Assembly (NCBI GenBank): GCA_944322945.1
Contig: CALUQN010000010.1
Span: forward strand, 2,230-66,229
DNA length: 64,000 nucleotides
Origin: Candidatus Gastranaerophilales bacterium
GTDB lineage: Bacteria > Cyanobacteriota > Vampirovibrionia > Gastranaerophilales > Gastranaerophilaceae
Direction: 5' to 3'
Shown here: in pieces, positions 8,085 through 62,582 of the stretch
How the letters are laid out: the number at the start of each line of letters is the position of its first letter
Position numbering within the stretch: position 1 is the stretch's first letter
The notes under the pieces: generated by a model
What the model was told of the DNA's origin: nothing
Databases searched by the model: none
Seen by the model: the letters and a program-made list of their open reading frames with translations, nothing else
Translations under genes and position numbers: made by a program

Positions 8085-8341
8085 GACCGTGCCACTGTCT
8101 ATCGAATTTACCGACTATAACTTCGGAACAAATTTCCTCTTTTTAATTGTATAACACCCGCAAGGATTGCCTTAGTGCTGCTATGTTTCCATCCTGACAC
8201 GGTTCGGCAGCTTACGCCGCTACACTCTTAAACGTCAACGAAAATTTATCCGTCCGCTATAACCGTTAAACCCTCACAACAGGCTCTGCACCCCGCATTG
8301 GCTTCGGGTCGAGAGATTGCAATTCCCCGTGGAGCACGGTC
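8085..8341 (-). ncRNA. ffs: signal recognition particle RNA, long (Bacillus-type, Alu-domain-containing) form
   Basis: On the minus strand, GUGUCAGGAUGGAAACAUAGCAGCACUAAGGCA matches the domain IV core GUCAGGUCCGGAAGGAAGCAGC..AAGGCA. The 3' end CGAUAGACAGUGGCACGGUC resembles the B. subtilis scRNA end GACAGAAGGUGCACGGU. The termini GACCGUGC/GCACGGUC pair. The region is GC-rich in an AT-rich genome, has no credible ORF, carries a TGCTATAAT extended -10 just upstream, and is followed by a T-run. Confidence 0.75.
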
Positions 8342-9180: not shown

Positions 9181-9198
9181 ATTGTAAACTTTTGTATA
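9181..9198 (-). promoter_or_regulatory. HLR1-like direct repeat (1 mismatch)
   Basis: Minus strand reads TATACAAA-AG-TTTACAAT against the consensus (G/T)TTACA(T/A)(T/A)-N2-(G/T)TTACA(T/A)(T/A). Located between the divergent genes 8368..9141 and dfx. Confidence 0.4.
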
Positions 9199-10234: not shown

Positions 10235-10306
10235 ATTCAAAAATAGCTAATATTGCGATTTTGTAATCAATTTGTCCGTTTTTTCAAAATATTTTATTAT
10301 ATAAGT

Positions 10307-11917
10307 ATGCAAAAAGGGAAAATAGTCGTAGTTGATGATGAAAAAATGGTTACCTCAGCTTTCAAAACACTTTTAAAAGTAGAGGGCTTTACTGACGCTG
10401 CGTTTTTTAATAACCCTAAAGATGCTGTTGAATATTTAAAATCTGAAAATCCCGATTTGATAATATCTGATTTTATGATGCCGGAAATGAACGGTCTTGA
10501 ATTTTTGACTGAAGCCAAAAAACTTCATCCGGAAACAAGCATGATACTATTGACAGGCTATGCCGATAAAGAAAATGCAATCCGTGCTATAAATGAGGTC
10601 GGACTTTACAAATACATAGAAAAACCATGGGATAACGACGACTTGTTGATGAATATCAAAAACGGTATTGAACGCAGCCATCTGTTATCTGATTTGCGAA
10701 ATACTATTGCGGAACTTGAAGATGCTAAGAACAAGCTTCAGGCTTATTCTGAAAATCTTGAAGCTCTTGTTGCCGAGCGTACAAAAGAATTAACCGAAGC
10801 AAACGCAAAATTGAGCGGAATTGTCAACTACTGCGCAGACGGAATTATTATTATTGATAAGACAGGCGGCATTATACAGGTCAATCCGGCTTGCGAAAAC
10901 CTTATCGGTATGTCGCAAAAATCCCTTGCAAAAATGAAGTTTCAGGAGATAGCATATTCTCACAAACCAGAGATGAATTCTTCCGCTAATAACCAAAACG
11001 GCGGAATATTCGGGCTTAACGCAGATAAAAGTGAAGTTATACTTAGAGATTATTTTATTGTGAATAAGCTGAGCAAAGAACATGTACCGGTAGAAATTAG
11101 TTTTGCTGCTATATCTGCTGAAAACTCACTGCCTGAAAGATATGTCGGCGTTATACGTGATGTTAGCGTACAAAAAGAGACTGAAAAACTTCGAGATGAT
11201 TTTATAGCTACATTGACACATGACTTGCGCACACCTCTTCTTGCAGCTATCCAGACTTTGAAATTTTTCCTGGAAGGCGCACTGGGCGAACTATCAGAAA
11301 AACAAACAGTTTTACTGACGACAATGCTTGGCAGTAATGAAGATTTGCTCGGGCTTGTGAATGCTCTGCTTGAGGTTTACAGGTTTGACAGCGGAAAGTT
11401 AGAGCTGTGCAAAACGTCTTTTAATTTTAAAAATCTCGTCGAACAGTGTTATGAAGAAATAAAGCCGCTTGCACAGAAAAAGGATATAGATTTTATCCTT
11501 AATTGTGAAATTCCTGATAATAGTGAAATTTACGCGGACAAAGCTGAACTCAAACGAGTTATCATCAATCTTTGCGGCAATGCCGTAAATTACACAAATA
11601 AAGGCGGAAAAATTGAAATTCTTACAAAAATTCAATCCGGTGATCTGATTTTTTCAGTAACAGACAATGGCAACGGAATTCCAAAAGAGGATTTGCCGCT
11701 GTTATTCAAAAGATTTTCACAGGGGACAAGCCGCAAACGTTCGACAGGTACAGGATTGGGACTTTATCTTTCCCGTCAGATTATAGAAGCTCACGGCGGT
11801 AAAATCTGGGCAGAAAGCAAACTGGATAAGGGCAGTGAATTTTCTTTCCTCTTAACCGGGGTTGAAGATATAAAAAATGGCAGAAATTTAACAGAAAGGC
11901 AGAAAGTAAATGGTTAG
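10307..11917 (+). CDS. hybrid sensor: receiver + coiled coil + PAS + HisKA/HATPase histidine kinase
   Basis: REC (VVVDDE...IISDFMMPEMNG). PAS-like region. H-box FIATLTHDLRTPL. G-boxes DNGNGI and GTGLGL. ATG at 10307 chosen. Confidence 0.85.
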   Translation: MQKGKIVVVDDEKMVTSAFKTLLKVEGFTDAAFFNNPKDAVEYLKSENPDLIISDFMMPEMNGLEFLTEAKKLHPETSMILLTGYADKENAIRAINEVGLYKYIEKPWDNDDLLMNIKNGIERSHLLSDLRNTIAELEDAKNKLQAYSENLEALVAERTKELTEANAKLSGIVNYCADGIIIIDKTGGIIQVNPACENLIGMSQKSLAKMKFQEIAYSHKPEMNSSANNQNGGIFGLNADKSEVILRDYFIVNKLSKEHVPVEISFAAISAENSLPERYVGVIRDVSVQKETEKLRDDFIATLTHDLRTPLLAAIQTLKFFLEGALGELSEKQTVLLTTMLGSNEDLLGLVNALLEVYRFDSGKLELCKTSFNFKNLVEQCYEEIKPLAQKKDIDFILNCEIPDNSEIYADKAELKRVIINLCGNAVNYTNKGGKIEILTKIQSGDLIFSVTDNGNGIPKEDLPLLFKRFSQGTSRKRSTGTGLGLYLSRQIIEAHGGKIWAESKLDKGSEFSFLLTGVEDIKNGRNLTERQKVNG

Positions 11918-12575
11918 GGTGTTAATTGTTGAAGATCACGATATGGCAAGAATGGGGCTTTCCGTGATACTCGGAAGTAACGCTAATATAGAAATTGCAG
12001 ATATGTCATCTGACGGTCAGGACGGTGTAAACAAGGCACTGGAGCTGGAACCTGATGTTGTTATTATGGATATCGGGCTTCCGACTATAGACGGTATTGA
12101 GGCAACCCGAAAAATCAAGTCTGCAAACCCTAAAATAAAAGTTTTGATGTATACATCAAGAGAATCCGAAGATGATATATTTGATTCTTTTCAAGCAGGT
12201 GCTGACGGATATATTACAAAAGGTGCAACTGCAGAACAAACTGTTTCGGCTGTGCTTGCTGTGGGCGAGGGGGTAGCTTGGCTTGATCCTGCTATTGCAA
12301 AGGTTGTTTTAACAAATATTCGCCGTTCAACTGAAACTCAAACACGCCGCGGTGAGATAAATTATGCACTTGGCAAAAACCTTTACGGTTTAACAGAACG
12401 CGAGATGGAAGTTTTGGCTCTTATTGTTGACGGTCTTTCAAACCCGCAGATCGCGGATAAGCTCGTCATCACGCTTTCTACTACCAAAACACATGTCCAT
12501 AGTATTTTACAAAAATTATATGTGGAAAGTCGCTCAAAAGCTGTTGCCATGGCGATGAAAGAGGGGTTAGTTTAA
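11910..12575 (+). CDS. NarL/LuxR-family response regulator
   Basis: REC (LIVEDHD...VIMDIGLPTIDG) plus a LuxR HTH (LTEREMEVLALIVDGLSNPQIADKL). 8-nt overlap with the kinase gene. Confidence 0.9.
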   Translation: MVRVLIVEDHDMARMGLSVILGSNANIEIADMSSDGQDGVNKALELEPDVVIMDIGLPTIDGIEATRKIKSANPKIKVLMYTSRESEDDIFDSFQAGADGYITKGATAEQTVSAVLAVGEGVAWLDPAIAKVVLTNIRRSTETQTRRGEINYALGKNLYGLTEREMEVLALIVDGLSNPQIADKLVITLSTTKTHVHSILQKLYVESRSKAVAMAMKEGLV

Positions 12576-14883: not shown

Positions 14884-14901
14884 GTTACATTTGTTTACAA
14901 A
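14884..14901 (+). promoter_or_regulatory. perfect HLR1 (RpaB-type) direct repeat
   Basis: GTTACATT-TG-TTTACAAA matches the consensus with no mismatch. Located in a divergent intergenic region. Confidence 0.6.
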
Positions 14902-21318: not shown

Positions 21319-22323
21319 TTATATTTTGTAATATTTCAGTGTCTGATTAATTTCTTTCGGCGGTACCGTTGAGACTACACGTGCCACTGTACGAGCTTTG
21401 CCTGAGTCAAGATAATTGAAGCCGTATGGTGTTGTTACTTTTGCACGAAGTGCATATTTTACCGCATCATTTACAGGCAGCGTTTCGTTTAACTCCGTAA
21501 TTAGTCTATACATTGGCTGCGAGTAAACTTTATTGCCTATGCTGTTTTTAAAAACTGACGCCTTCAATATTTTTGCCGCTTCTTCTGCTGATACTTTTCT
21601 TGTCTCCATGCTGATGAAACCATCATTAAACATTGCTTCACTCAGCTTGTCGTTTCCTTGCCAATCCGTTAATATTGATGCGTTTTTGATTGTTTTTACT
21701 GTGTCGATATCGTATCCGTCATAAAGTTTGTTTACAATGAGTTTTCTTGCAAGAGGAGAAAATACATTTTTCCCGTAATATTTTAATTCAGAGGCTTGTC
21801 TGATCTCTTCTTCCGGAATATCTATTTCTGTTCTTCTTAGTTCCGGATATTTTTCGTCAATGTCAACATCCGGTGCGTAATTTATATCAACAAGCGGAGA
21901 ATCCAAATCTCTCGGCGCTATATCTGTATCAGGCATAAACCATTTGTTTTCGGAAAAAGTGTACCCTTTTGCTCTGTAAAATTTTCTGTCAACGGGATTG
22001 TAAAATTGTGTAACAATTGGTTCTAAGTCATCTTCATCGTAGCTGTCATATCCGCTCAAATCGTGTTCAAGAGAAATGTCAAAAAGTTCGTCGTCGCGGA
22101 AAATAGCTCTGCGGGCAGCGACGTCTTCCGGTGTTTCCTGCCTGAAATACGGCTTTTTCTTCTCGATGTATAATACGTCTTTTAACACAAACGGTATCGG
22201 ACAATTTTCATAATTCTGTTCATAGACATCCCTGTTTGCTGTTGTTTGTGTTTTAGGCTTTTTCGTTGAAGTGAAATAAGCTCTTTGGACAGGGCTGGTA
22301 TTTGTTATACGTTGAATTTGCAT
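21319..22323 (-). CDS. hypothetical protein
   Basis: 334-aa ORF. N-terminus MQIQRITNTSPVQRAYF. No recognised domain. Confidence 0.6.
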   Translation of the reverse strand: MQIQRITNTSPVQRAYFTSTKKPKTQTTANRDVYEQNYENCPIPFVLKDVLYIEKKKPYFRQETPEDVAARRAIFRDDELFDISLEHDLSGYDSYDEDDLEPIVTQFYNPVDRKFYRAKGYTFSENKWFMPDTDIAPRDLDSPLVDINYAPDVDIDEKYPELRRTEIDIPEEEIRQASELKYYGKNVFSPLARKLIVNKLYDGYDIDTVKTIKNASILTDWQGNDKLSEAMFNDGFISMETRKVSAEEAAKILKASVFKNSIGNKVYSQPMYRLITELNETLPVNDAVKYALRAKVTTPYGFNYLDSGKARTVARVVSTVPPKEINQTLKYYKI

Positions 22324-22967: not shown

Positions 22968-23591
22968 ATGTATTTTGATAGAAAATGTAAAATTACTTAT
23001 ATATGTAATGGCGGCACAATTTTTTCAGAGGATAACAGATTAACTGATTCTGAAAATTATCCGCCGTTGAGTGAGGCCGGAGTTGAGGAAGTCGAAAGAA
23101 TTTGTGATTATTTAAAAAAACGCGGAATTAAAAATAACAAAATTTATTCATCTCCGGCAACGCGTGCAATGCAGACTGCACAGATGGTTGCTAAGATTTA
23201 TAAGCAGGATTTTGAAATTATTGAGGACTTGCATCCGAGAAAATGCGGTGGTTTCAACAATATGACCTTTGAGCAGCTTGAAGAAAAATGCCCTGAGGAT
23301 TTGAAACGATTGATTACACAGCCGGAAATCAGAACCCCGGATGATGCTGAAAGTGTTTCTGAATTTATTGACCGTGTAAAGATTGTTATTGATAAAATTG
23401 TTGCGGAAAATCAAGGCTCAAGGATTATTGTTGTGACTCACAAGGACGTTATAAAAGCTGCTATATGCCTTGCGCTTAATATTCCGGCAAGTTCTCTTCA
23501 AAGAATTTACATAAAAACAGGCTCTGCCACACAAATTAGCTATTATGACGAATGGGCAAGCTTAATGTATTCTGATTACACTCCTGTTTAG
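22968..23591 (+). CDS. histidine-phosphatase (phosphoglycerate mutase-like) superfamily protein with a non-canonical active site
   Basis: SSPATRAMQTA and VVTHKDVIKA motifs are retained. The expected N-terminal RHGE(T) reads NGGT. ATG 22968 with AAGAGG upstream. Confidence 0.7.
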   Translation: MYFDRKCKITYICNGGTIFSEDNRLTDSENYPPLSEAGVEEVERICDYLKKRGIKNNKIYSSPATRAMQTAQMVAKIYKQDFEIIEDLHPRKCGGFNNMTFEQLEEKCPEDLKRLITQPEIRTPDDAESVSEFIDRVKIVIDKIVAENQGSRIIVVTHKDVIKAAICLALNIPASSLQRIYIKTGSATQISYYDEWASLMYSDYTPV

Positions 23592-25204
23592 ATGTTGTCT
23601 CCCATCCAGGAAAGTAAAGAATTTATATTTACGCATTTGTCTTGCGAAATGGTGCTGCTATCAAGATACATATCCTGTGAAAAATTTTTCAGGATGTGAC
23701 TAAGCGTCTCTTCTTCAGGCAGCATTTCTTTTACCTCTTCAACAGGTGGTTCGCCTTCTTTTTTGTGGACAACGCGTGTTAATTTTGCTGATTCAATTTG
23801 AGGATTTTCCAGGTCTCCTTTAAACTTAATATTTAATCTGATAGTATCTCTCGGATTAAACAGTGTGAGGTCATTAAGTGATTCACCTTCAACAAGTTTA
23901 AATCCCCCATTTTCTGATATCAATTTTGTATATTTAGGTCTTGCGTCAGTGATTTTGGGCGGCGTGTAGCGCTCAATTGATTTAAAGTCATCATTGTAAC
24001 TGATAAAAGATTTGTCAGGATTATATGTATAATGTCCTCCAAAGTCAGCTTTATCAGACCCGAATTTTGCATTGTATACGTGGGTGCAGTCCGTCATTTT
24101 AGGTGTTAATTCAAACCCGTCAACAACGTGGCTTCTGATTTGCCCTTGTGCAACTGTTCCTCTGTCGGCAAATATTTTCAGTAAATCCGCATAATCTGTG
24201 ATGGGATTTTCTATGTCAGGTCGGAGTCCAAAATCTTTGTACAGGGTTTCGCAAACTTCGTTATAGCCGTCATCTATTATATCTTGTTGATTTTTCAGAG
24301 TTTCACGGAATTTTTGCGAGTGTATAATTTTGTAGACTTCTTCTTTTGATTTACCGGTTTGGTTTGCAATATCATCAATTGTAGAGTCAATATCAAGTTT
24401 ATGGCGCCACCTGCTTAATAGTTTTTCACTTTTTGCCGAGGGCATGAGATTGTCAATTATCGGCTTGCCGTCTCCTATTTCATAACAATCCAATATTGCA
24501 TCTAAATCAAATTGCCTTACAATTTTTTGAGCAACTGATTGGTTTATGTCAGTAACGATGACCTCACCTGATGCCGCATCGAAACGGATTGGGCGGAAAG
24601 CGTCTATGTACAACTTATTGGTAAGCACACCATGCTTATTAACAATCGGTGTTAAGTTGTTGTTACCTATAAATAATTCGCTAATCTGCGTAAACTCACC
24701 GTCAGACGGTCGGTGGATATTCATTACAACATCGCCGTTAGTTACCTGCATAAAACTCATATCGTCATTAAATTTGAGTGTTCTGCGTGCATCTGCATCT
24801 GCTTTAATAATTTTTGTAAGCAAACTCTCCTGATTATTTACAACAATTCTTTCAGGTGTCTCAAGTGTTTCCGGCTTAAATTTTGAGAAGATGCTTTCGC
24901 CGAAATTGAAATCAAATTTTTTGTTTATAATATTTTTGAAGGGGTCAAAATTTGCGATCTCTTCAGCAATGGAACTTAGCTCTGATGAGCCCTTTCCTCT
25001 TCTGAGATAATATATTCCGCCTGTGACTGTCGCTATTAAAGCTGCAGCAGCCGCAGCCGACCAGTAAATTTTAGATTTTGCTGAATGTTTGTCTTTAGCC
25101 TCCGCATCAGGATTTGTCTGCGTAGAAGTCTTTTGCTGTACTCCGGCAGCACGATTAAGCAGAAAATCATTCTGGAGACCTAAGTTCACTTTACTTTCTA
25201 ACAT
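23588..25204 (-). CDS. membrane-anchored hypothetical protein
   Basis: 538-aa ORF. A single TM helix (IYWSAAAAAALIATVTGGIYYL) follows a polar N-terminus. Confidence 0.6.
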   Translation of the reverse strand: MLESKVNLGLQNDFLLNRAAGVQQKTSTQTNPDAEAKDKHSAKSKIYWSAAAAAALIATVTGGIYYLRRGKGSSELSSIAEEIANFDPFKNIINKKFDFNFGESIFSKFKPETLETPERIVVNNQESLLTKIIKADADARRTLKFNDDMSFMQVTNGDVVMNIHRPSDGEFTQISELFIGNNNLTPIVNKHGVLTNKLYIDAFRPIRFDAASGEVIVTDINQSVAQKIVRQFDLDAILDCYEIGDGKPIIDNLMPSAKSEKLLSRWRHKLDIDSTIDDIANQTGKSKEEVYKIIHSQKFRETLKNQQDIIDDGYNEVCETLYKDFGLRPDIENPITDYADLLKIFADRGTVAQGQIRSHVVDGFELTPKMTDCTHVYNAKFGSDKADFGGHYTYNPDKSFISYNDDFKSIERYTPPKITDARPKYTKLISENGGFKLVEGESLNDLTLFNPRDTIRLNIKFKGDLENPQIESAKLTRVVHKKEGEPPVEEVKEMLPEEETLSHILKNFSQDMYLDSSTISQDKCVNINSLLSWMGDNI

Positions 25205-25237: not shown

Positions 25238-26785
25238 CTATAATGTAACTTTTTGTAACGACAAGAGCCGCTTGTTTTCCTCAATTAAAAACTCTTTGCC
25301 GGGTTTTATTTCAATAAAATCCCATGGGAGCGCTGCGTCAAATTCATAGTTGCTTAAAGCAAAAAAGTCTGCGTCTATGGTGTCCTTGGCACAAGATTTG
25401 AACGCCCCGATTTTGCCGCCTTTTTGGTAAACATCAATCAAAAAATCCGTGAGACTCTCGTCTCCGCGGGAGAGTACTGCCTGCCAATAATCCCATTTAA
25501 TGCTTGAAAAGTGTGCAGTAATACCAAGTTTGTGAAATTCTTTTTTCAGAAAGTTAACTTTATTTTCCAGACTTTTTGTTTGCTCTCTTCCGCACCACTG
25601 AAACGGGGTGTTTGCTTTTGGTACAAAACTGGAAAATCCAAATGATATATCAAACCCTTTATTCTCTTCCTTTAGTCGTTTGGCAAGCCGTAAAAGTTCT
25701 TCCAAGTCTTCATCGCATTCTGTCGGCAGCCCCAGCATACCATAGAATTTGACTCCTTTCAGCCCGTTTTCTCTACAAATTTTAACAGCTTCAAAAATTT
25801 GTTCTTCTGTTACATTTTTGTTTATAACCTTGCGCAGACGTTCACTGCCTGCTTCTATTGCAAGAGTTGTATTTTTTTGTCCTGCTGTTACAAGTGTTTT
25901 TATTATATCCGGCTTTACCGCGTCAATTCTAAGGGAAGAGAGGCTCATCTCAATTTTTTCACCGTTTTGTATTTTTTTGTAAATATATTCGCATATATCT
26001 CCAAAGTGAGGATGCGCACTGATTTGAGCGCCTAAAAGTGCTATTTTATTTGTTTTTGACAGTCCCAGTTCTATTACCTTAATAAGTTCGTCATAGGGCA
26101 TAAATCTGAGCGGCAGGTTTAAATAAGAAGCAAGGCAGAAACCGCAGCGGTTTGCGCAGCCTCTTGCAACTTCCACTATAAATGTGTTCTTGAAAAATGC
26201 GTCTTCGCTCAATATCGGAGTATATATACATTCTGTGAGCTTTTTTGTAAGTTTTTTTACTGACTTTTGCGGCTTGGAAGGTACATATATCCCGTCGACT
26301 TTTGAGAGCATTTCAAGAATTTCATTACGTGATTTATCTTTATTATCCTTACAAATTCTTGCTGCTTCAAGGTTTACGTCTTCTCCGTCCCCAATAACGA
26401 TAAAGTCAAAAAAGTTTTTGTACGGTTCAGGGTTTGCGCTCACTACAGGACCTCCGGCAAATATCAGCGGGCAATCCTCTTCTCTTTCGGTTGATTTCAG
26501 CGGAATTTTATATTTGTCAAGCATTGAAAATATCGTCAGAAAATCCATATCAAACGAAAAAGAAAATCCGATTACATCAACATCTTTGAATGAGTGCATT
26601 GTGTTTTTGGTGTCTGAAAATATCATTTCCGCATTGATATCACACATTTCATCAATTCCTTTGAATACCCACAAGAAACCGAGTGATGAAAGTGCAAAAG
26701 ATTTCGGACCCGGAAATGCCATCCACAAGGTGAAGTCAGCATTTTTGTCAGTTATTGGATTGTATAGATAGATATCTTTAGTCAT
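25238..26785 (-). CDS. B12-binding-domain radical SAM protein
   Basis: CANRCGFCLASY CxxxCxxC motif. N-terminal Rossmann-like B12-binding-type region (VIGFSFSF...FAGGP...VIGDGE). Confidence 0.85.
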   Translation of the reverse strand: MTKDIYLYNPITDKNADFTLWMAFPGPKSFALSSLGFLWVFKGIDEMCDINAEMIFSDTKNTMHSFKDVDVIGFSFSFDMDFLTIFSMLDKYKIPLKSTEREEDCPLIFAGGPVVSANPEPYKNFFDFIVIGDGEDVNLEAARICKDNKDKSRNEILEMLSKVDGIYVPSKPQKSVKKLTKKLTECIYTPILSEDAFFKNTFIVEVARGCANRCGFCLASYLNLPLRFMPYDELIKVIELGLSKTNKIALLGAQISAHPHFGDICEYIYKKIQNGEKIEMSLSSLRIDAVKPDIIKTLVTAGQKNTTLAIEAGSERLRKVINKNVTEEQIFEAVKICRENGLKGVKFYGMLGLPTECDEDLEELLRLAKRLKEENKGFDISFGFSSFVPKANTPFQWCGREQTKSLENKVNFLKKEFHKLGITAHFSSIKWDYWQAVLSRGDESLTDFLIDVYQKGGKIGAFKSCAKDTIDADFFALSNYEFDAALPWDFIEIKPGKEFLIEENKRLLSLQKVTL

Positions 26786-26789
26786 ATAA

Positions 26790-27818
26790 TTACTCGTTAT
26801 TGCTGTTTATTGGCAGAATGTACAGTTCATCAATCAGCACGCAGACAGTTGCAGCAAGCGCCGGAGCTAATATTACCCCCCACAATCCAAGAAACTGCTG
26901 CCCGACAAACAGAGCAAAAAACATCGTCAGCGGATGAAGTTTCATAAATTTGCCAAACAAAAACGGTCTTACTATATAGTTTGACAGCTGCTGCACAACA
27001 AGGAACAAAATAACTGCAATGATTACTTTTGTCATTCCAAGTTGATATGCAACAAGAACAATTACCGCAAGCGCGATTGCAGGTCCTAAAATTGGGATTA
27101 TATCAAGTATTCCGGAAATCAATCCTAAGAGTATTGCATAATCTATCCGCATCAGCCACAAATATATTGTAACCATTATGCCTATTGCAAGCATTGATAT
27201 AATCTGTGCTCTGATGTAGCTGCCGACTTTCAAGCTTATAGATTTTAATATTGTAAGTGCTTTTGCTTTTAACTCCTGCGGAAAAAGTTCTACAAACTTA
27301 TCCTTGAGGTAATTTTTGTCTACCAGCAGATAAAATACTATCATTGTAATTGCTAATGCCAGTACAAAAAATTCCCCCAGAGCCATTGTGAAATTCCACG
27401 ACTGGTTAAATATATTCTGCGCGATATCCGTTGTTTTGTTGAGCTGTAATCCTTTATCAAAGATATCCTGTATGCTCAGTCCGAAAATATCAAGATTAAT
27501 CAAGTAATTTGTAAGCAACTCTATTTTTGCCGGGAGCATTTTTGTGAAGGTTTTTATTTCTTTAAAGGCAATTAAAAATATAGGCAAAAATACAGCAATA
27601 ACGCCGGCACAGCTGGCTGTAAGCACAAGTGATGAGGCAACTGCTCTGTTCATTTTTCTTTTTTGCAGCTTTTCAACATACGGATTTAATGCGCATGCAA
27701 TTACGTATGATGCAAAAAATAACAATAATATCCCTGCAATTTTCGGGATTATAAACAGTAGTGCAATTATCGAAACTAAAAATAAAATATTTTTTACTGT
27801 GAAAAATGACTTGAACAT
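26790..27818 (-). CDS. AI-2E family (PerM/UPF0118) transporter
   Basis: Polytopic membrane protein with ILDIIPILGPAIA. ATG 27818 with GGGAG upstream. Confidence 0.85.
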   Translation of the reverse strand: MFKSFFTVKNILFLVSIIALLFIIPKIAGILLLFFASYVIACALNPYVEKLQKRKMNRAVASSLVLTASCAGVIAVFLPIFLIAFKEIKTFTKMLPAKIELLTNYLINLDIFGLSIQDIFDKGLQLNKTTDIAQNIFNQSWNFTMALGEFFVLALAITMIVFYLLVDKNYLKDKFVELFPQELKAKALTILKSISLKVGSYIRAQIISMLAIGIMVTIYLWLMRIDYAILLGLISGILDIIPILGPAIALAVIVLVAYQLGMTKVIIAVILFLVVQQLSNYIVRPFLFGKFMKLHPLTMFFALFVGQQFLGLWGVILAPALAATVCVLIDELYILPINSNNE

Positions 27819-27923
27819 ACTGATATCTCCCTCAGGTATTATTACTAAATTAGTATATATCAAAAAAAATTCATGAGCAATTGTATAATTGGCTACCAGC
27901 TGGCTGCTGTCTGCTTTAAGCTA

Positions 27924-27941
27924 ATTGTAACAAATTGTAAA
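27924..27941 (-). promoter_or_regulatory. perfect HLR1 (RpaB-type) direct repeat
   Basis: Minus strand reads TTTACAAT-TT-GTTACAAT. The site ends 8 nt before a plus-strand TATAAT (27950..27955). Confidence 0.6.
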
Positions 27942-28017
27942 CAATTCATTATAATATAGCAATTTATTTATTGATATATACTTTATATATTTACGAGGAC
28001 AATTATAAGGACACATC

Positions 28018-28602
28018 ATGGGTTTCTTCACAGGCGCATACCTTAAAATAATGACCGGAAAGATGAAGCGGCAGCTTCAGAACCGACTCGTGCAAGTGAC
28101 TATGCAGATGAACCGTGTTACCAGACAGATAGGTGACATGGAAAAACAGCTGCAACAACAAGAAAACTCCATGAAAAACGCAGTCAGATACAATACCAGC
28201 ATATTCATGGTTCAACAAATGAATAAAATGGGTATGGGCTCCGGATTAGAAGCAATATTCGGTTCTGCTGTAGGTCAGGCTGACGCAGACGCAGCCGCAA
28301 AAATGAAGTCAATGAGCGATGCAGAACGTATGCAATATCAACAGATGGCATACCAGCAAGCTCAATCAATGGCGCAACAGCAATCAGCAATGAACCAGGA
28401 ATACATAACACAGATGATGGATATGTACAGAGAGGCTCAACTCGAACCGTTGAAGAATATGGAAGACAGTTTGGCAACAGAAAAGGCAACGTTGGAAACA
28501 AGAATTCAAACACTCACCGACCAGGAAAAAGCCGCACAAGAAATGGAAAAACAAGGTGCGAAAGATATGGCACCGGATTACACCGGACAGGGCCAAGGCT
28601 AG
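28018..28602 (+). CDS. Met/Gln-rich coiled-coil protein
   Basis: 194 aa with about 23 Met and more than 30 Gln by my count. No TM helix or signal peptide. Strong terminator downstream. Confidence 0.6.
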   Translation: MGFFTGAYLKIMTGKMKRQLQNRLVQVTMQMNRVTRQIGDMEKQLQQQENSMKNAVRYNTSIFMVQQMNKMGMGSGLEAIFGSAVGQADADAAAKMKSMSDAERMQYQQMAYQQAQSMAQQQSAMNQEYITQMMDMYREAQLEPLKNMEDSLATEKATLETRIQTLTDQEKAAQEMEKQGAKDMAPDYTGQGQG

Positions 28603-28626
28603 TTATAAAAGATTATATAAACAAGG

Positions 28627-28658
28627 AAAACCGCTCACCACCGAGCGGTTTTCTTTTT
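28627..28658 (+). terminator. rho-independent terminator
   Basis: AAAACCGCTC-ACCACC-GAGCGGTTTT followed by CTTTTT. Confidence 0.8.
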
Positions 28659-32303: not shown

Positions 32304-32321
32304 TTTACATATTGTTACAAA
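32304..32321 (+). promoter_or_regulatory. perfect HLR1 (RpaB-type) direct repeat
   Basis: TTTACATA-TT-GTTACAAA, 20 nt upstream of a candidate -35. Confidence 0.6.
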
Positions 32322-32341: not shown

Positions 32342-32369
32342 TTGTAAAAAAGCTTGTTTGTGCTATGAT
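32342..32369 (+). promoter_or_regulatory. candidate infC promoter
   Basis: TTGTAA-N16-TATGAT with an extended -10 TG (TGCTATGAT). Confidence 0.4.
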
Positions 32370-32455
32370 TTTCACGACAACTAACGTACAAAACTATATA
32401 AGGAGATATTACCATAGCTAACGATAATAACAGATCAGGCAAAGATCAGGCAATA

Positions 32456-32953
32456 ATGAATGAGCGTATTCGCGCTAAAGAAGTAAGATTAATTGATGAA
32501 AACGGTGAAAATAAAGGTGTCATTGAAACCTCTAAAGCATTAAAAATGGCTTACGATGTTGATTTGGACCTGGTTTTAATCAGTCCTAATCAGGAACCGC
32601 CTGTTGCTAAAATCTTAAACTATGGCAAATATAAGTACGAACAAGAGAAAAAAGCTAAAGAAGCCAAGAAAAAACAACATACTGTCGAAGTTAAAGAAGT
32701 TAAAATCAGATACAAAATAGACACGCATGATTATCAGGTAAGGATTAAAAATATCCAAAAATTCATTGCTCAGGGCAATAAAGTGAAAATCATAATCATG
32801 CTTCGCGGTCGTGAAATGCAGCATTCCAATCTTGCTTTTGACCTTGCAGCAAGGTTCATGGAAGATTTGAAAGATGCTCCTCTCATGTTTGAGAAAAAAC
32901 CTCAGCTTGAAGGCCGCAACGTCACATTGTACCTGGCTCCGCAAGGTAATTAA
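32456..32953 (+). CDS. infC: translation initiation factor IF-3
   Basis: NERIRAKEVRLIDENG...VAKILNYGKYKYE canonical IF-3. The true start may be ATT 32408 or ATA 32414, after AGGAG at 32401. Confidence 0.9.
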   Translation: MNERIRAKEVRLIDENGENKGVIETSKALKMAYDVDLDLVLISPNQEPPVAKILNYGKYKYEQEKKAKEAKKKQHTVEVKEVKIRYKIDTHDYQVRIKNIQKFIAQGNKVKIIIMLRGREMQHSNLAFDLAARFMEDLKDAPLMFEKKPQLEGRNVTLYLAPQGN

Positions 32954-33235: not shown

Positions 33236-33308
33236 GCCGCAATAGCTCAGTTGGTAGAGCAAGGGACTGAAAATCCCTGTGTCCTTGGTTCAATTCCGAG
33301 TTGCGGCA
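33236..33308 (+). tRNA. tRNA-Phe (GAA)
   Basis: 73-nt cloverleaf. Acceptor GCCGCAA/TTGCGGC, anticodon loop CTGAAAA, T-loop TTCAATT. CCA not encoded. Confidence 0.95.
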
Positions 33309-38862: not shown

Positions 38863-38935
38863 GCGGAAGTAACTCAATTGGCAGAGTCCCTGCCTTCCAA
38901 GCAGGTTGTTGCGAGTTCGAACCTCGTCTTCCGCT
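38863..38935 (+). tRNA. tRNA-Gly (UCC)
   Basis: 73-nt cloverleaf. Acceptor GCGGAAG/CTTCCGC, anticodon loop CTTCCAA, T-loop TTCGAAC. Confidence 0.95.
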
Positions 38936-56827: not shown

Positions 56828-56931
56828 GCATGTTAATTTTTGTAACTAAAAGTATATACGATTTTAAAGTTTTTGCTCCTCCGTGACGATAAATAATATG
56901 TAATCAGAAACTTATAAAGGAGAATTTATAT

Positions 56932-57087
56932 ATGCTTAAAAAGATTGTAACACCTTCGTGTAATGTATGCGACAGTGTGGAATTTATATTAAGAGGAGCG
57001 AGAAAACGCCGCTCTATGGCGATGGCTAACGCAAATATGATTAATGCGGATGCCGGTATTCAGGCGAGATTGGTAGCAGTTAAGTAA
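56932..57087 (+). CDS. candidate 51-aa basic small protein (below the ORF-track cutoff)
   Basis: MLKKIVTPSCNVCDSVEFILRGARKRRSMAMANANMINADAGIQARLVAVK. AAGGAG lies 9 nt upstream and a terminator follows. Confidence 0.4.
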   Translation: MLKKIVTPSCNVCDSVEFILRGARKRRSMAMANANMINADAGIQARLVAVK

Positions 57088-61492: not shown

Positions 61493-62245
61493 ATGACAGA
61501 AAATGCAGAAATGACTACTACTGAAAATGAAGATCGTCAAAGAATTCTTTTAGCCGATGATGAAGCTTCAATCAGACGTATTCTAGAGACCAGATTAAAA
61601 ATGGCCGGTTATGATGTGTACACAGCTGCTGACGGTGAAGAAGCCGTTAATGCATTTAATAAATATAATCCTGATTTGGTTGTTTTGGATGTTATGATGC
61701 CAAAGATGGACGGTTATGGTGTAACAAGAGAAATCAGACGTACTGCTGATGTTCCGATTATTATCCTGACTGCATTGGGTGATGTTTCTGAAAGAATTAC
61801 AGGACTTGAGCTTGGTGCTGACGATTATGTAATTAAACCATTTTCTCCGAAAGAATTAGAAGCTCGTGTCAAGGCTGTATTAAGAAGAACAAATAACAGA
61901 GAAACGATTACACCGAGCGGCAAAGTTACCAAAAATGTAATAACAACAGGTAATATCAAAATTGATACAGCAAGACGTCAGGTATACAGAAAAAATGACA
62001 GAATTCGTTTAACCGGTATGGAATTTAGTCTTTTGGAACTGCTGGTTAATAATTCAGGGCAGGCATTTTCAAGAAACGAAATTCTCCAGCATGTTTGGGC
62101 TTATCCGCCTGATCACAGAATTGATACGCGTGTTGTTGACGTTCACATTTCAAGATTACGTTCAAAATTGGAATCAGACCCGGCAAATCCTGAATTAATC
62201 TTGACAGCTCGCGGTATTGGATATATGTTCCAGAGAATAAACTAA
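61493..62245 (+). CDS. rpaB: OmpR-family response regulator, RpaB/Ycf27 orthologue
   Basis: DDEASIRRILETRL...TAADGEEA...DLVVLDVMMPKMDGYGV...VPIIILTALGDVSERITGLELGADDYVIKPFSPKELEARV is nearly collinear with cyanobacterial RpaB as I recall it. Confidence 0.8.
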   Translation: MTENAEMTTTENEDRQRILLADDEASIRRILETRLKMAGYDVYTAADGEEAVNAFNKYNPDLVVLDVMMPKMDGYGVTREIRRTADVPIIILTALGDVSERITGLELGADDYVIKPFSPKELEARVKAVLRRTNNRETITPSGKVTKNVITTGNIKIDTARRQVYRKNDRIRLTGMEFSLLELLVNNSGQAFSRNEILQHVWAYPPDHRIDTRVVDVHISRLRSKLESDPANPELILTARGIGYMFQRIN

Positions 62246-62505: not shown

Positions 62506-62582
62506 GGCGTCTGTCGTCAAGCGGTTAAGACCTCGGATTGTGGTTCCGATATGCATGGGTTCGAATCCCATCAGACGCCCCA
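62506..62582 (+). tRNA. tRNA-His (GUG) with encoded G-1 and CCA
   Basis: An extra 5' G, then acceptor GCGTCTG/CAGACGC. Anticodon loop TTGTGGT. T-loop TTCGAAT. 3' CCCA. Confidence 0.93.

Follow-up and report, generated by a model that had tools for sequence, protein, structure and literature searches.

The HLR1 motif belongs to RpaB, the essential protein that acts as master regulator of the photosynthesis genes of cyanobacteria and of red-algal plastids, and its presence in a gut bacterium without photosynthesis raises the question of what such a site controls there and through which protein. Our study addresses this question for an 18-bp element in a stretch of 64,000 nucleotides from a Candidatus Gastranaerophilales bacterium (GCA_944322945.1, contig CALUQN010000010.1), referred to here as the window. 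The element lies between two divergent genes, an AI-2E family transporter gene (26790-27818, minus strand, Pfam PF01594) that heads an AI-2E/radical SAM operon, and the gene of a Met/Gln-rich protein of 194 amino acids (28018-28602, plus strand), the likely regulated gene. The result is a transcription factor binding site of known type, predicted by computation. RpaB homologues were already known in Melainabacteria; the literature that we searched contained no paper linking HLR1 with this lineage.

A perfect HLR1 element and its conservation across Gastranaerophilales

The element occupies positions 27924-27941 on the minus strand, where two 8-nt direct repeats, TTTACAAT (27941-27934) and GTTACAAT (27931-27924), are separated by TT; the plus strand of the same segment reads ATTGTAAC-AA-ATTGTAAA. 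Direct comparison with the consensus (G/T)TTACA(T/A)(T/A)-N2-(G/T)TTACA(T/A)(T/A) gave zero mismatches, in agreement with an earlier note on this DNA, which had described a perfect HLR1 at this place and had counted it as the second one; the window in fact contains four (14884 and 32304 on the plus strand, 25242 and 27924 on the minus strand). All of them are intergenic or at an intergenic edge. Dinucleotide-preserving shuffles of the window predict 0.02 perfect sites, and none of the 100 shuffles contained more than one. The same tendency was observed with less stringent patterns: the core TTACA-N5-TTACA occurs five times in the window against 0.29 expected, and a relaxed core seven times against 1.2 expected.

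It is important to consider that the intergenic region has a GC content of 27%, and a chance AT-rich word without function could be suspected in such a sequence, a possibility that the earlier note had itself raised. The counts came out against it. HLR1 is not a common AT-rich word here, because the window holds four perfect sites where 0.02 are expected and five cores where 0.29 are expected, and because only four perfect sites were found in 448 kb of related loci once the orthologous position was excluded. In addition, the motif is enriched about 800-fold at the orthologous position in 74 species, and the site is kept while its flanks diverge. The shuffle counts, the orthologous-zone counts and the half-site counts in control windows thus already refute the chance-word explanation, whose probability we regard as negligible, and the HLR1 site at 27924 is a real, non-random control element.

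The conservation data come from a scan of one genome per species, which recovered 77 loci encoding the Met/Gln-rich protein, 74 of them with usable promoters. These promoters were anchored on an invariant block downstream of the element, and a 31-nt zone was compared with the remainder of the loci. The zone (2.3 kb over the 74 promoters) contains 17 perfect and 22 one-mismatch HLR1 sites, and the remainder (448 kb) contains four perfect and five one-mismatch sites. With the strict consensus, 39 of the 74 loci have a site with at most one mismatch; when TTACA or TAACA (TWACA) half-sites are allowed, the figure rises to 69 of 74 with at most one mismatch and to all 74 with at most two, a level reached by the TWACA variant in 0.6% of 1401 control windows. 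The position of the element is fixed in the 74 orthologous promoters: its end lies 76-85 nt from the ATG in almost all loci, and a constant spacing separates it from a GGCAAT box (16-17 nt) as well as from the invariant block, while the sequence on either flank of the element is unconserved.

The orientation of the repeat varies. It stands on the strand opposite to the gene in 58 of the 74 loci, the window among them, and on the gene's own strand in the other 16, with an offset of 3 nt; both classes share the same register, in which near-palindromic TGTWACA heptamers are 10 bp apart. These results show that strong purifying selection acts on the cis-element upstream of defined genes. On the evidence of the alignments, the promoter of the Met/Gln-rich gene has the 18-bp element as a conserved operator, and the comparison shows that the HLR1 cis-element has remained unchanged in the Gastranaerophilales lineage.

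The two genes flanking the element

The Met/Gln-rich protein, whose ATG is at 28018, consists of 15.5% Gln and 11.9% Met. Its homologues are restricted to the Gastranaerophilales (non-photosynthetic gut Melainabacteria/Vampirovibrionia), across which the protein is conserved at 30-45%; the best genome match, at 97% identity, is in the closed MAG OZ006972.1. Profile searches of Pfam, NCBIfam and PDB gave nothing significant for this protein, and the best PDB-profile matches, both non-significant, were PEX14 (E = 0.13) and CHMP3 (E = 0.82). An AlphaFold2 model (mean pLDDT 80) consists of long helices at residues 2-70 and 101-184, and the protein is predicted to be a long helical hairpin; Foldseek searches with this model returned generic coiled coils alone, with E above 0.1. 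Translation would start behind the Shine-Dalgarno sequence AAGGAC (28007-28012, plus strand), the second of two AGGAC motifs in a short leader. Directly after the gene, at 28626-28653, lies an intrinsic terminator composed of a GC-rich hairpin and a T-run, and because of this structure the gene is monocistronic.

On the other side, the ATG of the AI-2E gene at 27818 is preceded by the Shine-Dalgarno sequence GAGGGAG, and the HLR1 site was measured at 106-123 nt upstream of it, consistent with the 105-125 nt given in the earlier note. The operon has a predicted promoter of its own at 27852-27880 on the minus strand, with a -35 TTGCTC (27880-75), a spacer of 17 nt and a -10 TATACT (27857-52), and the HLR1 centre is about 87 nt upstream of the transcription start predicted from it. 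Canonical promoters of this kind (TTG[CA]NN-N16-18-TAnnnT) were identified close to the AI-2E start codon in 54 of 61 loci. How far the HLR1 centre lies from the predicted AI-2E start is not fixed among the loci, with values between 63 and 225 nt.

The AI-2E/radical SAM operon is divergently upstream in most loci. A co-directional gene takes its place in six of them (L028, L042, L048, L051, L063 and L067) and a different gene in L036, and the element, the box and their fixed spacing are kept in all of these. Because the AI-2E distance varies and the element stays when the neighbour changes, HLR1 is anchored to the Met/Gln-rich gene, whichever its upstream neighbour. The AI-2E operon was considered as the main target and rejected on account of the variable distance between HLR1 and its promoter, and we regard the link of HLR1 to the divergent operon as weak.

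Promoter geometry and the position of the element

Two further conserved features lie between the element and the Met/Gln-rich gene. The first is the box, TAGCAAT at 27957-27963 in the window and aGGCAAT in the family consensus, located 16-17 nt past HLR1 and 16 nt before a TACTTT hexamer; the downstream block excepted, it has the highest information content of the promoter. The second is the invariant downstream block, TACTTTATATAWTTACGAGGAC, which occupies 27979-28000 on the plus strand and is followed by the Shine-Dalgarno sequence and the ATG. The block, TACTTTATATATTTACGAGGAC, is found once in the window and comprises the hexamers TACTTT (27979-84), conserved in 70 of 74 loci, and TATATT (27986-91), of the form TATAWT in 62 of 74. 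An RNA structure was considered as the reason for its invariance: RNAalifold, applied to 23 leaders, gave neither a conserved structure (-1.6 kcal/mol) nor covariation, and because of this lack of a conserved fold the block was rejected as an RNA structure. Rfam searches, at the gathering threshold for the whole window and permissively for 27800-28100, returned no intergenic match.

TACTTT and TATATT are the only conserved -10 candidates, an assignment made by conservation alone within a block that is invariant throughout its 22 nt, and transcription would probably start from one of them at about 27991-27998. The ordinary promoters of this genome (those of the SRP RNA, a tRNA, rplU, rpsL, rpaB and AI-2E) have a -35 of the type cTTGCA or TTGACA. 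The Met/Gln promoter has no TTG on the plus strand at the -35 distance, and such a missing -35 is typical of an activator-dependent promoter. Alternative sigma factors were also considered for the GGCAAT box (sigma-54, sigma-28 and SigF-type) and were rejected on inspection by eye, since no second element was conserved at the spacing that they need.

A start at about 27991-27998 would put the HLR1 centre (27932.5) at roughly -57 to -66. Activation by RpaB in Synechocystis goes with centres between -66 and -45 (peak at -51), and repression with centres between -38 and +23 (peak at -5) (PMC6525291). The value found here, although close to the outer limit of this activation range, would make the element an upstream activator-type site rather than one that occludes a -35. 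Under the two other readings of the promoter, the centre would be at -30 or at -5.

The value of -30 corresponds to the proposal of the earlier note, in which the TATAAT at 27950-27955 of the plus strand serves as -10, transcription starts at about 27962, HLR1 covers the -35 and RpaB represses the Met/Gln-rich gene. The coordinates of the hexamer, 8 nt past the site, are correct; both the window and L001 contain TATAAT and TATATT, GTAACA-17-TATAAT scores 10/12 in a consensus scan, and a centre at -30 lies within the range reported for repression (PMC6525291). However, only 14 of the 74 loci have a TAnnnT within 2 nt of the equivalent position, and even the closest relatives, L002 (TATAAA) and L003, show it degraded, whereas the TACTTT located 29 nt further downstream is conserved in 70 of 74. 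Between HLR1 and the box, the other loci have a spacer that varies or is rich in A. The 199-nt spacer, at 27% GC, contains ten TAnnnT hexamers, and promoter-like matches in the region number three against 3.9 expected in shuffles; the TATAAT is probably fortuitous. Occlusion of this -35 would, moreover, leave the strongly conserved box and the 22-nt block unaccounted for. The site is thus not supported as lying on the -35 of a conserved promoter, and the repression that had been deduced from it depends on an unconserved TATAAT, while the conserved -10 candidates give the activation class. We consider this reading very unlikely.

The value of -5 results from a leftward promoter, with a -35 TTGCTA (27962-57), a -10 TACAAT (27939-34) inside HLR1 and a start at about 27927, which RpaB would repress. 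Such repression would act on an upstream start of the AI-2E/radical SAM operon, or else lessen competition with the rightward promoter that lies back to back with it, and the site would then be a bidirectional switch. Several observations agree with it. The promoter scan returns TTGCTA-17-TACAAT on the minus strand, and -5 is the repression peak of Synechocystis. On the minus strand the box reads ATTGCTA, which is -35-like and resembles the -35 regions of the lineage (cTTGCA and TAATTGCA). It starts with TT on that strand in all 74 loci, its variants TTGCCT, TTGCTT, TTGACA, TTGACT and TTTACT are all -35-like, and the minus-strand forms ATTGCC, ATTGCT, ATTGAC and ATTTAC resemble the -35 regions of AI-2E (TAATTGCA). 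The spacing from the box to the half-site is also fixed, at 16-17 nt. Nevertheless, the -10 that this promoter needs is poorly kept, with a TAnnnT at 16-18 nt in 27 of 74 loci and at exactly 17 nt in 12 of 74, and many loci have TACATA or TACAAA, in which the final T is missing. The box and HLR1 are retained in the six loci without a divergent gene, a conserved canonical promoter of AI-2E itself lies close to the AI-2E start codon, and the repeat is in the other orientation in 16 loci. A leftward promoter as the reason for this arrangement is, in our judgement, improbable.

Activation from upstream, the reading supported by the conserved -10 candidates, has an analogue in class I activation, which in the CRP paradigm acts from about -61.5 and has been cited as an analogy for RpaB (PMC6525291). 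The operator here is likewise about 60 bp upstream of the inferred start, and the locus shares with class I promoters and with -35-less activator-dependent promoters a core promoter without a TTG -35 and an A-tract upstream of the -35 region. In contrast to CRP, the regulator here would be a tandem-binding winged-helix dimer, with a mechanism deduced by analogy. The RpaB orthologue (61493-62245) would most likely bind the 18-bp HLR1 as a dimer; in its phosphorylated form it would recruit RNA polymerase from upstream in a class-I-like activation, similar to that of the RpaB-activated photosystem I promoters of cyanobacteria; transcription would begin at about 27991-27998 from TACTTT or TATATT, and an abundant coiled-coil protein would be made from the monocistronic gene switched on in this way. 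That RpaB is the bound protein, where transcription starts and that the regulation is positive are points that we infer. As a whole, we lean, by a modest degree, towards a functional operator that is bound by RpaB and activates the Met/Gln-rich gene in a class-I-like manner.

The presumed regulator and the other HLR1 sites of the window

The protein that would bind the element is encoded in the same window. The gene at 61493-62245 (plus strand) specifies an OmpR-family response regulator with the Pfam domains Response_reg and Trans_reg_C (PF00072 and PF00486), and its product scores 361 bits against the NCBIfam RpaB equivalog model NF045944 (cut-off 330), with the full profile covered. MtrA and YycF are among the next-best matches, both below their own cut-offs: MtrA, the next family, reaches 243 bits against 300, and YycF reaches 226 bits against 340. 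The orthologue is 84-94% identical across the Gastranaerophilales, far more than the Met/Gln-rich target protein with its 30-45%, and is named RpaB by JGI and NCBI. In a comparison with two proteins that bear the name RpaB, the recognition helix, DTRVVDVHISRLR, is shared with P0152 (named by JGI) and differs from that of an Acaryochloris protein (P0317, 52% identical). In the PDB, RpaA is present and RpaB was not found. Homologues of RpaA, RpaB and NblS have already been reported in Melainabacteria, those of RpaB since 2013 and with the comment that they may have another function (PMC3787301, PMC4040986).

A second line of evidence comes from rpaB itself. Four further Gastranaerophilales genomes have an EamA transporter gene divergent to rpaB, and three of these four spacers contain a conserved array of three HLR1-like half-sites located 28-38 nt before the rpaB ATG. 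This suggests autoregulation of rpaB in those three genomes, and the arrays link the motif with the regulator. In the window, the neighbour of rpaB is a different gene and no HLR1 was found upstream of rpaB; synteny around rpaB is not conserved in L078-L082. Taken together, these comparisons make the RpaB orthologue the likely binding protein of the HLR1 element.

It has been reported that the WalR/VicR box of Firmicutes has the form TGTWAH-N5-TGTWAH (PMC4168254), and the element could be a real operator of another regulator, for instance the RpaA homologue or a different OmpR/WalR-like response regulator, with its likeness to HLR1 reflecting a half-site common to the family. The reverse complement of the element, TGTAAC-N4-TGTAAA, does use the WalR/VicR hexamer (PMC4168254), here on the opposite strand, and the WalR/VicR (YycF) box is also a direct repeat and is recognized by an essential regulator of the OmpR family. 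For the regulator of the window, the models that come next are, in addition, YycF and MtrA, and Melainabacteria carry RpaA homologues too (PMC3787301). Against this explanation, the spacing is different: the element has N4 (period 10) and the WalR/VicR box N5 (period 11), so that the element does not qualify as a WalR/VicR box, and among the 74 loci TGTWAH hexamers are separated by N4, the HLR1 period, in 47 and by N5, the WalR spacing, in seven. The 64 kb contain four perfect matches to the complete 18-nt HLR1 consensus. No other OmpR-type regulator was found in the window, and the only one present passes the RpaB equivalog cut-off and fails that of YycF (226 vs 340 bits); the HLR1-like arrays that precede rpaB elsewhere in the order also point to RpaB. 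We hold an operator of another regulator to be unlikely.

Compared with the HLR1/RpaB system of Synechocystis (2019, PMC6525291), the system of the window has the same consensus and the same 8+2+8 architecture; the genome encodes an orthologous regulator, the motif is found at more than one promoter per genome and in either orientation, and two positional classes are probable (here, about 75-92 and about 37-39 nt before start codons). The differences concern the host and the targets. The host is a non-photosynthetic anaerobic gut bacterium without photosystem, hli or phycobilisome genes; the putative targets are lineage-specific coiled-coil and membrane proteins, infC and possibly a desulfoferrodoxin operon; a TAACA half-site core is accepted in many species; and the system described here is a prediction from sequence comparison.

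The evidence tips slightly in favor of an RpaB-HLR1 pair that predates oxygenic photosynthesis, still operates in the anaerobic Gastranaerophilales and controls a different regulon there. If this is true, the regulon would include an order-wide activator-dependent Met/Gln-rich promoter, lineage-specific membrane proteins, infC and perhaps oxidative-stress genes, and the ancestral, pre-photosynthetic job of a "high-light" regulator could be read from Gastranaerophilales genomes. The conserved element supplies a concrete regulon in which the signals and targets that RpaB and NblS had before photosynthesis can be investigated, and the Met/Gln promoter, compact and strongly conserved, is suited to binding and reporter assays.

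The sites of the window fall into two groups by their distance to the start codon, about 75-92 nt and about 37-39 nt. The perfect HLR1 at 14884-14901 (plus strand) is 75 nt upstream of a 94-aa ORF that has a single homologue, 98% identical. The earlier note had contrasted the geometry of this site with that of the site at 27924; the contrast does not hold, since both sites end 75-76 nt before an ATG, and site 27924 groups with site 14884. The perfect HLR1 at 25242-25259 (minus strand), in turn, is 37 nt upstream of a 538-aa hypothetical membrane protein gene (23588-25204). Dual use of the motif, for activation and for repression, is plausible. The fourth perfect site, 32304-32321 (plus strand), lies upstream of infC, for which an extended -10 TGcTATGAT ending at 32369 and a true start codon ATA at 32414 are likely.

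Imperfect sites are located in comparable places. A one-mismatch HLR1 at 9181 (minus strand) has a 257-aa gene at 39 nt on one side and a desulfoferrodoxin-ferritin operon at 83 nt on the other, three half-sites at 56829-56856 (minus strand) end 75 nt before a 51-aa CxxC ORF, and a weaker HLR1 is found at 21997 (minus strand). An all-against-all BLASTP of the proteins encoded by the HLR1 targets detected no shared family. The promoters of these other sites are ambiguous, given that forward half-sites (TTTACA) mimic a -35. The distance of site 27924 to its start codon thus has close counterparts at 14884 and 56829-56856 (75 nt each), at 9181 (83 nt, to the desulfoferrodoxin gene) and at another site, in L043 (about 79 nt). 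The site at 25242, together with the TAGCAAAAAA that follows it, is kept in L001-L003.

Operator position and promoter elements of the Met/Gln-rich protein gene

Comparing the promoter of the Met/Gln-rich protein gene with its orthologues in other Gastranaerophilales genomes indicates, at the level of sequence, that the position of the predicted operator is kept while its architecture drifts. In one sub-clade (L030, L036, L056, L071, and L075), the half-sites are 11 bp apart instead of 10 bp, as TGTTACA-N4-CTTAACA, and in another (L004-L013 and L017) they take the inverted arrangement TTGTAA-N7-TTACAA. Two further elements are kept in all of the approximately 74 orthologous promoters: a GGCAAT box (27957-27963), which resembles a -35 when read on the opposite strand, and the invariant 22-nt block TACTTTATATAWTTACGAGGAC (27979-28000). 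The leader of the gene contains two AGGAC motifs, one of which is the SD sequence, and we found neither an RNA structure nor an Rfam match for the box, the block or the leader.

Other perfect HLR1 sites

In two species (L037 and L043), a gene for a 680-aa protein (N-terminus MGMAAGQARLL...) lies directly 3' of the Met/Gln-rich gene and is preceded, at a distance of approximately 79 nt, by a perfect HLR1 (about 3603-3620 in L037 and 3648-3665 in L043), and it is likely another member of the regulon. In the window, a perfect HLR1 on the minus strand (25242-25259) lies 37 nt before the gene of a 538-aa hypothetical membrane protein (23588-25204) and overlaps the radical SAM gene at its final codons; this site and the adjacent TAGCAAAAAA are kept in the three closest relatives (L001-L003, near -2780). 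Only the window's genus has the 538-aa gene, as an insertion, and in the other loci the radical SAM gene is directly followed by a histidine phosphatase gene. Another perfect HLR1 is located on the plus strand upstream of infC (32304-32321), where TGcTATGAT (32361-32369) is likely an extended -10. The start codon of infC is probably ATA at 32414, a non-canonical one, placed 8 nt after AAGGAG and in the same frame as an ATG at 32456.

Weaker HLR1-like sites

A one-mismatch HLR1 (9181-9198, minus strand) is flanked on one side, at a distance of 39 nt, by the gene of a hypothetical membrane protein of 257 aa, and on the other, at 83 nt, by a desulfoferrodoxin-ferritin operon; through this site, the regulator of an anaerobe may be linked to genes of oxidative stress. 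A hybrid histidine kinase gene (receiver-PAS-HisKA-HATPase) and the overlapping gene of a LuxR-type response regulator are located downstream of this operon (both in 10253-12575, plus strand). Just after the rpmA terminator, three HLR1-like half-sites with a 10-bp period (56829-56856, minus strand) stop 75 nt short of an ORF of 51 aa (56932-57087), whose SD sequence is strong and whose product contains a CxxC motif. One more one-mismatch HLR1 (21997-22014, minus strand) falls within a 334-aa ORF of the same strand (21319-22323), and it could be fortuitous, mark an internal promoter or result from a start codon that was called wrongly.

The rpaB orthologue and its upstream region

The window encodes an RpaB orthologue (61493-62245, plus strand) that scores above the cut-off of the NCBIfam RpaB equivalog and shares 84-94% identity across Gastranaerophilales. 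Upstream of this gene we found no HLR1; a canonical promoter, cTTGCA-17-TAATAT, is visible there. In four other Gastranaerophilales genomes (L078, L080, L081, and L082), an EamA transporter gene is divergent from rpaB, and HLR1-like half-sites are arrayed in the spacer at 28-38 nt from the ATG of rpaB (9946-9973 in L078, 1411-1428 in L080, and 1446-1473 in both L081 and L082). These predicted sites may indicate that rpaB is autoregulated in such genomes.

The local promoter consensus, cTTGCA-17-TAnAAT, was derived from the regions upstream of the SRP RNA gene (8087-8339, minus strand) and of one of the three tRNA genes (38863-38935); the other two are at 33236-33308 and 62507-62579.
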